Source of the DNA: a virus | Taxonomy: Duplodnaviria; Heunggongvirae; Uroviricota; Caudoviricetes | DNA length: 38,064 bases | Virus record (IMG/VR): IMGVR_UViG_2526164598_000023 | Strand: one strand, 5' to 3' | In this document: positions 7,382 through 12,348 of the stretch, piece by piece | Position numbering within the stretch: position 1 is the first letter of the stretch | How the letters are laid out: each line of letters opens with the position of its first letter | Notes under the pieces: generated by a model | Database searches by the model: none | What the model was told of the DNA's origin: nothing | What the model saw: only the letters and a program-made list of their open reading frames with translations | Translations under genes and position numbers: made by a program

Positions 7382-8262
7382 ACACTCCTCGTCAGTATTC
7401 TGGCGGCCATTGCACTTAATCCCGGAGACATGCGGTTGAATGCTGTGCCGGCGGCGTTAAGCTGCCCGGAAACGGTATCCAGAGCATCTGCAATATTTCT
7501 TTTGTCCACACCACTCAGCGCAGACTGTGCCTGCTGTACATACGTGGCTGCTTCGCTGGCTGTTCTGGCCAGACTGATGGCATCGGGCATGGATTCAGAG
7601 AGTGCGTTAAACGCCGGAACACTTTTCCCCAGAGCCCCGGAGATATTACCCAGTCCGCTCATCAGCCCCGGCACACGGGTCAGTGCGACAACGGGGTTAT
7701 CCTTCATTTTCTGTGTCACCCGAACGGCGCTGATAGTGGTCTGGAGTACAGACTGCGCCTGTTTCGCATAGTTGACGCCGTTGCGGATGAACTGCGCCAC
7801 CCCTGAAGGTGAAGGTATGGCACCGGAGACCGCCCCGACACCCGGGAGCTTCGTGCGTATTGCCGGTGGTTGCAGAGGATTTTTCGGGTCACCGGTGTAT
7901 TCCCGGAGAGACACGGTGGCACTGACAGCCAGCACGTTGCCGGTACTGTCAGTCTGCTCGCTGGTTGCAGTCACATCGGTAATCACGAACCAGCCGCGAT
8001 AGTCACCGTTGCCGAAGACCAGCGCCAGTGCCTGATGGGCTTTCATGGCTGTTCGCAGTCTCGCCAGCTCCACATCGGGTACACAATAATGCTGATGGAA
8101 AACCAGAGTTATCTGGATTTCGTCCAGCCTGTCGCCGACGAACTGCAGGCCAGGCTTACCCCCGATGCGGGCATGCTCCGCATAATCGACGCCGAACGTG
8201 GCCTCGAAGCCGTCCCAGTAGGTAATCAGCTCAAACTCAATATCACCCAGTACGGCAAACAT
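7378..8262 (-). CDS. Tail protein, Mu N / P2 gpU-like (DNA circularisation protein family), 294 aa
   Basis: Immediately downstream of the tape measure; N-terminus MFAVLGDIEFEL. Confidence 0.5.
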   Translation of the reverse strand: MFAVLGDIEFELITYWDGFEATFGVDYAEHARIGGKPGLQFVGDRLDEIQITLVFHQHYCVPDVELARLRTAMKAHQALALVFGNGDYRGWFVITDVTATSEQTDSTGNVLAVSATVSLREYTGDPKNPLQPPAIRTKLPGVGAVSGAIPSPSGVAQFIRNGVNYAKQAQSVLQTTISAVRVTQKMKDNPVVALTRVPGLMSGLGNISGALGKSVPAFNALSESMPDAISLARTASEAATYVQQAQSALSGVDKRNIADALDTVSGQLNAAGTAFNRMSPGLSAMAARILTRSV

Positions 8263-10952
8263 CAGCGGTACTCCTTACGTTGTTTCTGAGCCAGCAGACG
8301 CTCCAGCATTTTTTCCAGCTCATGCAGACTCATATTCAGGGCACCAGTCAGTCCTGCAGGCGCTGTGGTTTCCCTGCCATTGAGGAAAAACTGAGGATTA
8401 AAGCTGACCTGGATACCACCAGACGTTCCACCGCCGGTTGCAGCTGCACCACGGCCTGAATATCCGGCAGCCAGGATTTCAGGCGAGGGGATACGGGGAA
8501 CATCCGGTGTCATCTCATTTGCCAGACGTTGCCCTGGTAAAATCGATGCCCGGGTGGAGAGCGGAATAGCGGGCATGGAAGACAAACTATTGATTACGGC
8601 TCCGATCGCATTTTTAGCAGACGACATAAACCCATTGATATCGGGCAACGGCATACTGAAGCGAACACCTGAAGTGTTATCCCGTATTTCTGGCCCCTGG
8701 ATGCTCACGGGCATTCTGGGGAGCAGTTCACTGGCCATTCGCTGCCCGGCCAGAGCTGCAAGCGGAGTGGTCCGCTGCAGGCCAATGGCGGCCCCCTGCG
8801 CGATATTGTCACCAAAGCCCATAAACACGCGGCTCGGCGAATGAATGCCCAGCTTTTCGCTGAACCAGCCACTGATGCTGTCACCCATTCCGGTTACACT
8901 GGATTTGAGCGACTCCCATTTGTTTTTGATACCGTTAATCAGACCATCGACAAGATGGCCACCGAAGTCGGTAAACTTTGCCGGCAGATCAACACCAAGA
9001 TATTTCAGCGCAGCTGCAAAGGCTTTATAGAGCAGGCCTGCCGGCGACCAGTTAATCAGTAACTTACCAATTCCCACAATGCCGCCGTTAAAGGCTTCCT
9101 GAATGTCTGCCCAGCGCTGTTTAAACCAGCCACTGACTGCCCCCCAGTTGCGGTAGATAAGGTAAGCTGCTGCCGCGACAGCGGTGATAACGAGACCGAT
9201 GGGATTCATCATCAGCGCACGTCCAATCCAGAGAACAGCACGTCCGGCGAGCATAATTCCGCGAACCAGCCCCTCGGAGAGCACGCCACTCAGTGTTCTG
9301 GCTCCTCTGGCGACGGCGCTAAATCCGGTCACCAGCCAGCGGAGCTTACCGCCTTGCCCCAGTGCGAGCGACAGACGAAGCCAGTTGGCCCGAAGTAAAA
9401 CAGCATTTTTCCAGACACTTACAAAGGGGGAAATAAGGAGATTCAGCCCCAGTTTGAGACCAACAGTCGCTATCTTAATCGCAAGGAGCGCACTGATGAG
9501 CTTAAAAGCCCCACTGACAAATTGCGGGTGAGTCGCTACCCAGTGTTTTGCCCCCTGAATGAGTGGAAGCAGTTCCTGAGTCAAAGAAATAAAAGATGGA
9601 GCTAATTGATCGCCCAGCGTAATTGCCAGATCGCGACTGCTGACCATAAGTGTTTTAGTGGCTTCAAGGGGAGATTTCAGCCGCTGATCATAAGCACTGG
9701 CAAGCAAATCGTTATCCGCAGCCCTGAGAGCACCGGCACGGATCTCTCGATATCTGTCCATGTTGGCCAGCATCGGGCGGATAAATGCCATGACCTGCAT
9801 ATCCGCGAACATATCGCCCAGACCAAAGTTTTTCGCCAGAGCCTGAAGTGCCTCATCTCTTGCCGTATCATTCTTTATTTTCATGGCTGATTTGAAGCCG
9901 GCCAGCGCTTCGGGGCTTTTGGCATTGAGGTAACGTTCTATAACACTCAACATCCCTTCAATCGGAGAGATCCCCGCAGCTTTATAACTCGCAATAGATC
10001 CCTGCAAATCAATACCCAGATCAGCAAACTGTTTCTGAGTATCGCGGGCAAAAATTTTGGTAAGAAAGTTTTTAAAATTATTGGCTGCTTCGTCGGTGGA
10101 ACCTGCACCGATTTTTGCTATCTGGAGACTGGCCCCGATTTCAGCAACAGCCTCTTTTCCACTGGCAATACCCGCCATCATTGGGGCCAGGGACTGCATC
10201 CACTTGACCTGATCCGGGATTTCAAATGACCCCTGGTCACCGGCATAAGCCATAATATTCTGAACGGCACCAAAATCTCTGGCCGCACCTTTCAGGGAGT
10301 TTTGCCAGACTGCGGCCACTTTTGCCCAGTCCTGAGCAGACGTGCGTGTTGCCGTTGCCGCGCGGGCAATATCCGGCATCAGAAAACCGATATCTGACAC
10401 ATTATCAATATTGTCGCTGATGAGTGAACCCACCGCCTCCTGCAGCTCATCCTGATACTGATTGTATTTAAGCGCCCAGCCTTTTATCTGTCCGGCAAGT
10501 CCATCCCGCGTTTTATTGTCATATTTTGCGGTGATCGACATATCAATCATTTTGTCCTGAAAAGACATGGACTGCTGAACGGCAGGGGAAACCGTATGAT
10601 AAACAGTCTGTGCCATGCCATACGCTTCAATCCCCTGACCATACAGCGCCATGCGGTTAGCTTTCAGCGCATCACTGGTAGCGGATGCCGCTGACAGACG
10701 GCGCTGCTGGCGCTCAATTTGCTCCATGGTGCGGCTTACCCGCAGCAGCTCGCTGTTGAGATGCTGCATCCGGGAAGAACCCAGTTGACCATAACGTTCT
10801 GTTGCACGGGTTAAAGCGTTCTGACGTTCCTGCAGGCGGCGTGAGGTATCGCTCAGGGAATCAAGCGCACGGCGGGTACCGCTCATTGCAGAACGGAATG
10901 TGCTACCAATCATCCCGCCGATAACAACGCCGACTGAAAACTGTCCCGACAT
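8262..10952 (-). CDS. Tail tape measure protein, 896 aa
   Basis: Very long, Ala/Gln-rich N-terminal part and hydrophobic central segments; directly downstream of the frameshifted chaperone pair. Confidence 0.8.
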   Translation of the reverse strand: MSGQFSVGVVIGGMIGSTFRSAMSGTRRALDSLSDTSRRLQERQNALTRATERYGQLGSSRMQHLNSELLRVSRTMEQIERQQRRLSAASATSDALKANRMALYGQGIEAYGMAQTVYHTVSPAVQQSMSFQDKMIDMSITAKYDNKTRDGLAGQIKGWALKYNQYQDELQEAVGSLISDNIDNVSDIGFLMPDIARAATATRTSAQDWAKVAAVWQNSLKGAARDFGAVQNIMAYAGDQGSFEIPDQVKWMQSLAPMMAGIASGKEAVAEIGASLQIAKIGAGSTDEAANNFKNFLTKIFARDTQKQFADLGIDLQGSIASYKAAGISPIEGMLSVIERYLNAKSPEALAGFKSAMKIKNDTARDEALQALAKNFGLGDMFADMQVMAFIRPMLANMDRYREIRAGALRAADNDLLASAYDQRLKSPLEATKTLMVSSRDLAITLGDQLAPSFISLTQELLPLIQGAKHWVATHPQFVSGAFKLISALLAIKIATVGLKLGLNLLISPFVSVWKNAVLLRANWLRLSLALGQGGKLRWLVTGFSAVARGARTLSGVLSEGLVRGIMLAGRAVLWIGRALMMNPIGLVITAVAAAAYLIYRNWGAVSGWFKQRWADIQEAFNGGIVGIGKLLINWSPAGLLYKAFAAALKYLGVDLPAKFTDFGGHLVDGLINGIKNKWESLKSSVTGMGDSISGWFSEKLGIHSPSRVFMGFGDNIAQGAAIGLQRTTPLAALAGQRMASELLPRMPVSIQGPEIRDNTSGVRFSMPLPDINGFMSSAKNAIGAVINSLSSMPAIPLSTRASILPGQRLANEMTPDVPRIPSPEILAAGYSGRGAAATGGGTSGGIQVSFNPQFFLNGRETTAPAGLTGALNMSLHELEKMLERLLAQKQRKEYR

Positions 10953-11027
10953 AGTGGTTAACCTCCGGGGAAGGTGAAAAGACGTGAGGGGATAACGCAG
11001 AACAGCCGCTACTGGCGGCTGTCTGTA

Positions 11028-11445
11028 CTATGATTTGTCGCCGTACTCGCTTTTTATTTGCTCTTCAGCCTGCTCCAGCCACATCTCCAGATCGTCAGTA
11101 TCGAGGGCATCAATCTCCCCCGGCTGAAACCGGAACCATCTCGCCAGCAGCCCCTGCGCCTGCGTCAGCGCCCTAGTTGCTCTCACCCATCCCCGTGATG
11201 AGCTGAAATCGTTTCTGTAACTGCAGGTAATCAGCCAGATCCATATTGTCGAGATCTTCCGGGAGAAGACCAGTACTGCGGGCAATCAGCGGTTCGTCCC
11301 AGTCTGCCGGGTTTTTGCTGATTTTGCGCACCTGCTTCAGGTCTTTTACCGTCAGGCGTTTCAGTTCAACCTGCTCAATTCTGGTGCCTGCAGCAGTGGT
11401 GAAGGGATAAGACAATTTAAAAGTATCGGATGGGGTCTGTGACAT
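11028..11445 (-). CDS. Putative frameshift fusion product E+E' (about 139 aa)
   Basis: A second ORF (11028..11285) overlaps the 3' part of E and extends 145 nt beyond its stop. Sizes match P2 E (91 aa) and E+E' (142 aa). By codon phase E' is +1/-2 relative to E, not -1. Confidence 0.45.
11173..11445 (-). CDS. Tail assembly chaperone, P2 gpE-like, 90 aa
   Basis: MSQTPSDTFKLSYPF..., about 90 aa, between tube and tape measure genes. Confidence 0.6.
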   Translation of the reverse strand: MSQTPSDTFKLSYPFTTAAGTRIEQVELKRLTVKDLKQVRKISKNPADWDEPLIARSTGLLPEDLDNMDLADYLQLQKRFQLITGMGESN

Positions 11446-11542
11446 GATTGTGCTCCTGTGTAAGTTCAGGGCAGTATGTCGGGAGAAGCGCGTGACGGAT
11501 ATTAAAGGAGATTAAGAAGAAGGGGCCGGAGCCCCTGTGATG

Positions 11543-11824
11543 TCAGCAAGTGCGAAACCCCTTGCAGTTACGCAGGAAAGCGATGAGAAGCGTCTTTCCC
11601 TCAGATTTGCCGGTGCCGGAGAACCAGTGGTCGGGAGGCTCCCATGCTTCAATCAAATCCGCCAGTTTGCGGGCCTTTGAACGTGTGCAGTCAATCGGGT
11701 CATTGGTTTTACGGGTATTAAAAAGGGTTTCCACCCCCGGAATATCAAGGAGGGTAAACCACGTACCATTTGACATGCCCAGTGCCGCACATCGTCTTCC
11801 TTTATCCGTCAGTTCAACACTCAT
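11543..11824 (-). CDS. Hypothetical protein, 93 aa
   Basis: ORF between tube and chaperone genes, tightly packed; no recognised family. Confidence 0.4.
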   Translation of the reverse strand: MSVELTDKGRRCAALGMSNGTWFTLLDIPGVETLFNTRKTNDPIDCTRSKARKLADLIEAWEPPDHWFSGTGKSEGKTLLIAFLRNCKGFRTC

Positions 11825-11826
11825 CG

Positions 11827-12348
11827 TCAGCCCCCGATATTGATACGGTAGTCAGTCAGTTGATCAACACCGCCGACCCGGAAGATGTTGGCCAGATAGT
11901 CCAGTTGCAGCAGCTCTTCACCATCCAGTACCTGTCTGATATACGTGCAGGTGAAGCTACTGGAGAACTCGGCGTTCTCGTGCTGTTTGAACGTCCCCAG
12001 AGGGTTCTTCTTGAACATAATCGTCAGGAAGGTGACCAGCGGGATTTCGTCAATCAGCCCCTGCGAGCTGTAGCGCTGGACGCTGGAACGACACTGCAGT
12101 GCCAGCGACCTGTACGGGTTAGCGGCAGACAGCATCGCATCGCGGTAAAAGCTGTTCCATTTGATTTCGCCTTCCAGTTTGTCAAAACCAGCCGGGAGTT
12201 CCACCTTACCCACCATCCCCAGCGCCTTGTGTTCCTGCATAATCATGGAGACATCGGGGAGTTTAACTTCCTCAGCCCGTCCCAGCAGGTTAGTACCATC
12301 CAGATAGATGTTGGCATTCGTGATGCGGTTTATCTCAATCTTTGACAT
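11827..12348 (-). CDS. Tail tube protein (P2 FII-like), 173 aa
   Basis: Size and position directly downstream of the sheath gene. Confidence 0.65.
   Translation of the reverse strand: MSKIEINRITNANIYLDGTNLLGRAEEVKLPDVSMIMQEHKALGMVGKVELPAGFDKLEGEIKWNSFYRDAMLSAANPYRSLALQCRSSVQRYSSQGLIDEIPLVTFLTIMFKKNPLGTFKQHENAEFSSSFTCTYIRQVLDGEELLQLDYLANIFRVGGVDQLTDYRINIGG

Follow-up and report, generated by a model that had tools for sequence, protein, structure and literature searches.

A conserved +1 frame relation between the tail chaperone genes E and E' of a BcepMu-like Escherichia coli prophage, and a candidate +1 frameshift site at CGA_UUU_C

Frameshifting in the tail assembly chaperone genes is among the most conserved recoding events in phages, and it is nearly always described, searched for and annotated as a shift into the -1 frame. 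In phage lambda, gpG and its extended form gpGT are made at a ratio of about 30:1 by a -1 shift at G_GGA_AAG. For phage P2, a programmed -1 frameshift producing gpE and gpE+E' was reportedly described by Christie et al. in 2002, and for phage Mu, a -2 frameshift connecting gp41 with Mu_56 is said to have been reported by Xu, Hendrix and Duda in 2004. Here we examine an overlapping pair of this kind, E and E', in a stretch of 38,064 nucleotides of Caudoviricetes DNA (IMG/VR record IMGVR_UViG_2526164598_000023), the whole of which is referred to below as the window. The initial annotation of the window, made from the sequence alone, had noted a frame relation of +1 or -2 between the two ORFs (open reading frames) and had named Mu as a precedent.

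In lambda, neither the abundant chaperone nor its rare frameshift-extended form is part of the virion, and the sequence encoding them immediately precedes the tape measure gene. The two forms alike bind the tape measure protein, and tube protein is recruited by the extension on the rare one (PMC5009743). In P2, gpE+E' arises by a -1 shift at TTTTTTG without a downstream RNA structure (GenBank accession no. AF063097; PMC3091744). Mu was correctly named as a departure from -1, as the Mu record (GenBank accession no. AF083977) describes Mu_56 as "verified -2 translational frameshift in PMID 15469818", and two further sources agree (PMC5009743, PMC3498833), one of which puts the efficiency of the shift at about 2.2% (PMC3498833). 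In the sources examined, Mu appears to be the only documented case in which a +1/-2 relation has been verified experimentally.

In the window, E is taken as the zero frame, and minus-strand coordinates are given in window numbering throughout. The gene order on the minus strand is tube, an ORF related to DUF7739, E, E' and tape measure. The E product matches Pfam PF10109 (Phage_TAC_7) with an E-value of 1.9e-22 over residues 8-82 (79.5 bits, cut-off 25), and this match, together with the position of the overlapping ORFs between the tube and tape measure genes, supports their initial identification as a tail chaperone pair. The phase difference, (11445-11285) mod 3 = 1, places E' one nucleotide downstream of E, within reach of either a +1 or a -2 shift. 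In the -1 frame, stops at 11233, 11185, 11167 and 11056 make an extension impossible. As had been seen by eye, no canonical X_XXY_YYZ heptamer occurs in the E/E' overlap of the window. The limits of this overlap, 11173-11285, are exact for the window, though the overlap is shorter than in most relatives owing to a nonsense TAG in E. Judged by its sequence, the pair is outside the canonical -1 subset and belongs to the non -1 minority of the lambda G/GT class of chaperones.

Relatives came from tblastn in a phage collection, from a species-level scan in which an E' alignment was run against a single genome of each species (66 loci), and from two scans of IMG/VR that used E' alignments of enterobacterial and of BcepMu/Pseudomonas origin, respectively (160 loci). 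E and E' were positioned by HMMs (hidden Markov models) on stop-to-stop ORFs. The sample was seeded on E', as a broad E alignment lacked a conserved stretch; it is thus biased to loci that keep E' and uninformative on relatives without it. Among the 196 distinct E..E' sequences obtained, E' stood in the +1 relation to E in 193, which came from Enterobacterales, Burkholderia, Pseudomonas, Ralstonia, Lysobacter and Geobacter-type contigs, and E' co-occurred with E at every locus where both were readable. The frame relation of the window, +1/-2 and not -1, is therefore that of the family, as the phase difference and the -1 frame stops had indicated for the window itself. One of the three exceptions is Pasteurella phage AFS-2018a, where a homologous E', matched by the E' family HMM at 2e-11, follows a G_GGA_AAG heptamer and is in the -1 frame. 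The other two, in Apirhabdus apintestini (L020) and Erwinia tracheiphila (L053), carry single-base deletions that fuse the frames, 15 nt upstream of a conserved TTT codon in L020 and by reduction of G5 to G4 in L053. In-frame E-E' fusions of 138 aa recorded in databases (P0001-P0011) were tried as a guide to the junction and rejected, since their junctions are scattered, mostly at G-runs (G4 and G5 among them), and are each found on one or few contigs. These database proteins and the fused frames of L020 and L053 are probably sporadic indels, assembly errors or decaying prophages. Conservation of E' among relatives, the lack of which the initial annotation had named as a ground for refutation, is decisively established, with the +1 frame under purifying selection (see below), and a corrected sequence that would place E' in the -1 frame is excluded by the same +1 relation in 193 loci, finished genomes included. 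These comparisons indicate that the +1 arrangement is neither chance nor a sequencing error.

The position at which ribosomes would leave the E frame was bounded by stop codons around the conserved TTT, which is codon 80 (Phe) of E in the window. The nearest +1-frame stop upstream ends 9 nt 5' of TTT in five loci (L006, L007, L057, L064 and L070), and a zero-frame stop lies 21 nt past TTT in four others (L056, L071, L072 and L074). If the shift site is homologous family-wide, it should be located within the resulting 30-nt interval. In 47 ungapped sequences, the periodicity of third-position entropy followed the phase of E upstream of codon 80 and the phase of E' downstream of it. Pairwise pN/pS (the ratio of nonsynonymous to synonymous polymorphism) upstream of TTT was 0.36-0.44 in frame 0 and about 1 in frame +1; from +3 to +18 nt it was 0.63 in frame 0 and 0.69 in frame +1; and beyond +18 nt it was 1.2-2.1 in frame 0 and 0.19-0.80 in frame +1. 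These values indicate that, over the roughly 18 nt that follow codon 80, purifying selection changes over from E to the +1 frame. The zero-frame tail of E that follows TTT is not under purifying selection, and its length accordingly varies from 7 to 36 codons (21 to 108 nt) among relatives.

Within the bounded interval, zero-frame TTT_C was the only conserved slip-prone element. It was present exactly once per overlap, at the homologous position, in 67 of the 68 loci of the first set, and was found overall in 174 of 193 loci, or 39 of 43 clusters defined at 80% nucleotide identity. TTT was kept even in GC-rich hosts where it accounts for 7-34% of Phe codons; the product of the background TTT fractions over 22 clusters was 10^-10.4, a rough figure as the clusters share ancestry. 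The codon following TTT was CAG, CAA, CAT, CGC, CGG, CGT or CTG, so that the residue varied among Q, R, L and H while its first base was constantly C. In the 12 clusters that have Arg before this Phe, the Arg codon was without exception CGA, against a background of 5-22% of Arg codons; CGA is among the rare Arg codons of E. coli, at 3.8 per 1000 (PMC3498833). By this comparison, the TTT_C site is conserved at synonymous positions beyond what the protein requires. The stop-codon bounds, the change in the selected frame and the motif are three independent lines, and they converge on E codon 80.

Taken together, these observations suggest that E/E' is most likely a variant of the known tail-chaperone frameshift, with a programmed +1 shift at CGA_UUU_C. 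Most ribosomes would read E through in the zero frame, and a minority would enter the +1 frame at codon 80, where the P-site tRNA-Phe on UUU would re-pair one base forward on UUC (11207-11205), the better-matched codon. Reading would resume at AGC (11204) and end at the TAG of E' (Table 1). The predicted product is a protein of 138 aa, consisting of E residues 1-80 followed by SSSRGWVRATRALTQAQGLLARWFRFQPGEIDALDTDDLEMWLEQAEEQIKSEYGDKS (SSSRGWVR...EYGDKS), with LQKRF joined to SSSRGWVR at the junction; it would combine the Phage_TAC_7 domain with a GpE-like C-terminal extension. The C-terminus of the predicted fusion matches Pfam PF06528 (Phage_P2_GpE) weakly, at E-values of 0.0016-0.008 and 16-18.3 bits (cut-off 23), over profile positions 4-36 of 37, and no sequence relative of the fusion was found in the PDB. 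By analogy with lambda and P2, both forms would serve to coat the tape measure protein, and tube subunits would be brought in by the extension that the rare fusion carries. We consider it probable, on these comparisons, that E' is made in this way, by tRNA-Phe slipping from UUU to UUC to give the 138-aa E-E' fusion; what we infer is that the shift is +1 and not -2, at which codon and how efficiently it takes place, and how the chaperones act. Slippage of -2 from UUU, with re-pairing on GAU, is implausible.

Several observations weigh against this assignment. Support for it is comparative throughout, consisting of conservation, selection and motif, and the fusion is a predicted protein; moreover, the clusters are not fully independent, which makes any product of probabilities approximate. 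Eighteen distinct Pseudomonas-type loci (L185, L187, L189 and 15 more IMG/VR loci) carry TTG_CGG_G with E' intact, the subclade having GTG_TTG_CGG_GAA where its sister group has GTG_TTT_CGG_GAA, and synonymous variation at ACN_TTG places the +1 frame of this subclade under selection already about 30 nt downstream. This leaves two readings, one in which UUU is not a strict requirement and one in which this subclade has a different site; re-pairing on UUG_C would fit no model. The sole locus with neither TTT_C nor TTG_C, in a Gallionellaceae metagenome-assembled genome (L065, about 1150-1184), has CTT_CGG_GGG_C, which suggests that a Mu-type solution also arose inside the E/E' family. The zero-frame residues that follow F80 (81-85, QLITG) are still moderately conserved and the segment from +3 to +18 is dual-coding, so that selection alone puts the switch 0-18 nt after TTT, an interval that in the window holds GGG_A. 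No stimulatory RNA structure was detected by RNAalifold in 15 diverse sequences (-3.87 kcal/mol, 0 compensatory pairs), and the 121 nt of the window fold like shuffled sequences (z = -0.24). The 25 nt that precede TTT in the window contain no Shine-Dalgarno (SD)-like stimulator comparable to that of prfB, and the A-site codon is mostly CAG, a common codon. The conserved 5' CGA is no more than a candidate E-site effector. The arrangement GGAGGAGAC-CTT was also considered as a stimulator and rejected, as only some members of the Pseudomonas subclade have it, without conservation, and its position is 3' of the onset of +1 selection.

Escherichia phage PhiKM (Bcepmuvirus) shares 99.2% identity with the region, and the chromosome of E. 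coli FCI23 shares 100%; the host element is a BcepMu-like E. coli prophage with a P2-type tail, and 641 of 5426 complete E. coli genomes contain related copies. The E stop of the window is a C-to-T nonsense variant: PhiKM has CAG at this position and an E of 111 aa, Klebsiella phage KP12 has an E of 104 aa, and most relatives fall within 104-111 aa, compared with 90 aa in the window. As the zero-frame tail is unselected, the early TAG of the window can be tolerated. The exact 61-mer containing this TAG was found in 6 of 589 complete E. coli genomes, and the exact 90-aa E protein is recorded on 914 contigs, showing that the TAG allele circulates. An E' peptide 100% identical to that of the window was also found on an 8.2-kb contig assigned to "Arthrobacter sp. 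GMC3" (NZ_PJIO01000028.1, L010). This contig carries the PhiKM-type 111-aa E allele and the same junction segment as PhiKM, and it looks like E. coli contamination of an actinobacterial assembly.

A shift into the +1 frame might instead take place elsewhere in the overlap, at the window G-run ACG_GGG_A, either by +1 slippage of tRNA-Gly from GGG to GGA or by a Mu-like -2 shift. This would agree with the verified -2 site of Mu being a G-run (CGG_GGG_CGA), with the presence of exactly CGG_GGG_C and no TTT_C in L065, with the location of the G-run in the 0-18 nt frame-switch interval, and with the dispensability of TTT in the TTG_C subclade. The window run, however, has four Gs and not five, so that -2 re-pairing would occur on CGG with a first-position mismatch, and at least six clusters that keep both E' and TTT_C have AGC, GGC or GGT as the homologous codon. 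Distant clusters even end the zero frame no more than 21 nt from TTT without having a G-run, and the conservation of GGN_TGG is explained by the coding of Gly/Ala-Trp in the +1 frame. A shift at the G-run is thus unlikely, though it deserves to be kept in mind. An artefact, either a sequencing error masking a -1 pair or slippage of RNA polymerase, is scarcely conceivable, given the 193 loci with the same relation (finished genomes among them) and the four -1-frame stops, by which sequencing error is already refuted, and given a T3 run far below the tract lengths known for transcriptional slippage.

Two further alternatives would make a frameshift in the window unnecessary or irrelevant. E' could be a stand-alone small protein with its own start, as RefSeq has it: the NCBI Prokaryotic Genome Annotation Pipeline (PGAP) annotates E' as a separate coding sequence of 39-46 aa with a CTG start, named "GpE family phage tail protein" or "head-tail connector protein", PHROGs likewise treats it as an independent gene (phrog_8286), and in the window a GTG is available at 11186-11184 after GGGGA. 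NCBIfam has a model for neither E nor E'. The CTG starts chosen by PGAP differ in position between two near-identical genomes, and the +1 frame is selected well upstream of them. No conserved start of E' was found, as ATG, GTG or TTG with a loose SD before the E' core occurred in just 50 of 178 loci and at scattered positions. In addition, the homologous P2 domain is made solely as a frameshift fusion (AF063097; PMC3091744), and an independent start would leave the conserved C after TTT unexplained. We regard a separate E' gene as improbable, and hardly more credit is due to the view that the pair is non-functional in the window prophage, with TAG as a mark of decay and the frame relation as mere inheritance. 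The latter would be consistent with the rarity of the TAG allele among complete genomes, with the RefSeq/PGAP label of the window-identical E gene as a pseudogene with an "internal stop", with the frequent decay of prophages, and with the existence of sporadic indel-fused variants. TAG, however, lies 33 nt downstream of the proposed shift site and does not block synthesis of the fusion; the zero-frame tail lost to it is under no purifying selection (frame-0 pN/pS above 1), and the end of this tail varies among relatives between 21 and 108 nt past TTT. The wide recording of the exact 90-aa protein and the intact state of the neighbouring tail genes in the window also argue against decay.

The coordinates of the tail module and of the elements discussed above are listed in Table 1. 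Relatives in Salmonella Infantis (L005) and BcepMu (L004) have no annotated gene at the position of the DUF7739-related ORF. Between this ORF and E, within the tail operon, a terminator-like hairpin is formed by AGGGGCTCCGGCCCCT followed by TCTTCTTAAT (11521-11536, minus strand), and transcription reaching the chaperone and tape measure genes might be attenuated by it. Another hairpin, ACAGCCGC-CAGTA-GCGGCTGT (11002-11022, minus strand), with a perfect 8-bp stem, is located in the 75 nt that separate the E' stop from the start of the tape measure gene; it has no U-tract, and its stem is also found in Klebsiella phage KP12.

Table 1. Location of the tail genes and of the frameshift-related elements in the window
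Feature	Coordinates	Strand	Basis or remark
Sheath gene	13775-12348	-	Pfam PF04984/PF17482
Tail tube gene (upstream context)	11827-12348	-	Pfam PF04985, 2.9e-53
93-aa ORF between tube and chaperone genes	11543-11824	-	DUF7739 3e-5, below threshold; phrog_1239 5e-48
E, tail assembly chaperone ORF, 90 aa, ATG start	11173..11445	-	PF10109; phrog_166 "tail protein" 5.5e-30
E' ORF, entire stop-free +1-frame stretch, 85 aa	11028..11285	-	ORF list and frame check
E' part read after the proposed shift, 58 codons and TAG (11030-11028), +1 frame	11028..11204	-	phrog_8286 2.1e-34; +1-frame pN/pS 0.19-0.35
Proposed +1 shift cassette CGA_TTT_C	11205..11211	-	CGA 11211-11209, TTT 11208-11206, C 11205
TAG terminating E	11173..11175	-	Nonsense allele found in a minority; PhiKM and the majority of E. 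coli copies have CAG
ACG_GGG_A G-run, rival slip candidate	11190..11196	-	Read from sequence; window-specific
Tape measure gene, directly downstream of E/E'	8262..10952	-	Pfam PF10145, 1.7e-20

A large family, present in E. coli at the frequency given above and in many other Proteobacteria, thus appears to use +1 where -1 is expected of tail chaperones. On the interpretation favoured here, public records err in three ways, presenting E' as a tiny CTG-initiated gene, E as a pseudogene, and the BcepMu genes as a different, -1 pair. No description of a +1 UUU_C site in tail chaperones was found in the literature searched, which did not include the key primary papers, and an earlier description is possible. 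If the shift at CGA_UUU_C is real, it would be a natural, selected bacterial use of a tetranucleotide hitherto deemed an error hotspot, and it would supply a concrete +1 motif for annotation pipelines and for predictors of programmed ribosomal frameshifting. It would also make available one protein family in which to study how -1, +1 and -2 solutions replace one another at a constant ratio of products.

Among the described systems, P2 is similar to the window in placing the chaperone genes between the tube (FII) and tape measure (T) genes, and its E matches the same Pfam family (PF10109, 1.5e-12 for P2). The shift, which in the window is a proposed one, is located at the C-terminal end of the PF10109 domain in both (F84-L85 in P2, F80 in the window), and the fusion is of similar size, 142 aa in P2 (PF10109 at residues 7-85, PF06528 at residues 104-139) and a predicted 138 aa in the window. 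The E' motif FHWPPSEL...W..KA aligns with FRFQPGEI...WLEQA in the comparison of P2 with the window, and a downstream RNA structure is absent from both (PMC3091744 for P2). They differ in that P2 shifts by -1 on T6G, whereas the window has CGA_TTT_CAG, with E' in the +1 frame and the -1 frame closed, and in that the window E', unlike that of P2, stays below the Pfam threshold for PF06528 (18.3 against 23 bits). Mu shares with the window a chaperone extension in the +1/-2 frame, encoded between the tube and tape measure genes. Its gp41, however, belongs to Pfam Gp41_Mu (PF23746, 9e-35), with a marginal match to TAC_7, while the E product of the window matches PF10109 only. At CGG_GGG_CGA, Mu provides perfect -2 re-pairing of tRNA-Gly and a rare, slow CGA in the A site; the window has ACG_GGG_ATG, in which the run is not conserved. 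The parallel drawn initially with Mu is therefore sound as regards a non -1 shift; the solution of Mu is missing from the window, where the conserved CGA_UUU_C, 15 nt upstream of the G-run, would imply +1. Sequence similarity between lambda and the window is undetectable, and lambda differs in having a siphovirus tail and a -1 heptamer.

Slippage at UUU has precedents. Error-prone UUU_Ynn sites of E. coli (argI) were reportedly described by Fu and Parker in 1994 and by Schwartz and Curran in 1997; unlike the site proposed here, such E. coli UUU_Y cases are viewed as errors and not as programmed events. Influenza A virus makes PA-X by a +1 shift on UCC_UUU_CGU, where tRNA-Phe prefers UUC (PMC3498833). 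PA-X and the window are similar in having UUU_C in the P site, movement of tRNA-Phe to UUC (proposed in the case of the window), no stop codon or RNA structure, and conserved flanking codons (PMC3498833; PMC5009743). They differ in that PA-X belongs to a eukaryotic virus and has a rare A-site CGU, whereas the window family usually has the common CAG, with the rare CGA on the 5' (E-site) side. BcepMu itself (AY539836) has homologues of E in gp41 (PF10109, 1.5e-15) and of E' in gp42, which is in the +1 frame of gp41, and it carries TCC_TTT_CGC at the homologous codon. In its record (L004, 4603-5364), the role of the "lambda G" protein is assigned to gp42 and that of the -1 extension to gp43. The latter is without a Pfam match, overlaps the start of the tape measure gene and has no equivalent in the window, which leaves only 75 nt between E' and that gene; it looks spurious. 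Comparative data favour gp41 and gp42 as the pair that would be joined in BcepMu, by a +1 shift at TCC_TTT_CGC. Tentatively, and with rather less confidence than we place in the shift itself, CGA_UUU_C may be seen as a dedicated bacterial +1 cassette, a prokaryotic counterpart of the UCC_UUU_CGU of PA-X that would need no stop codon, no rare codon in the A site, no SD and no structure, the slippage of tRNA-Phe being tuned by the rare CGA (read by inosine-adenine, I:A, wobble) as it leaves the E site. The Phage_TAC_7 family might then have changed from one solution to another among -1 (T6G or G_GGA_AAG), +1 (UUU_C) and -2 (G-run), with the fusion protein itself preserved.

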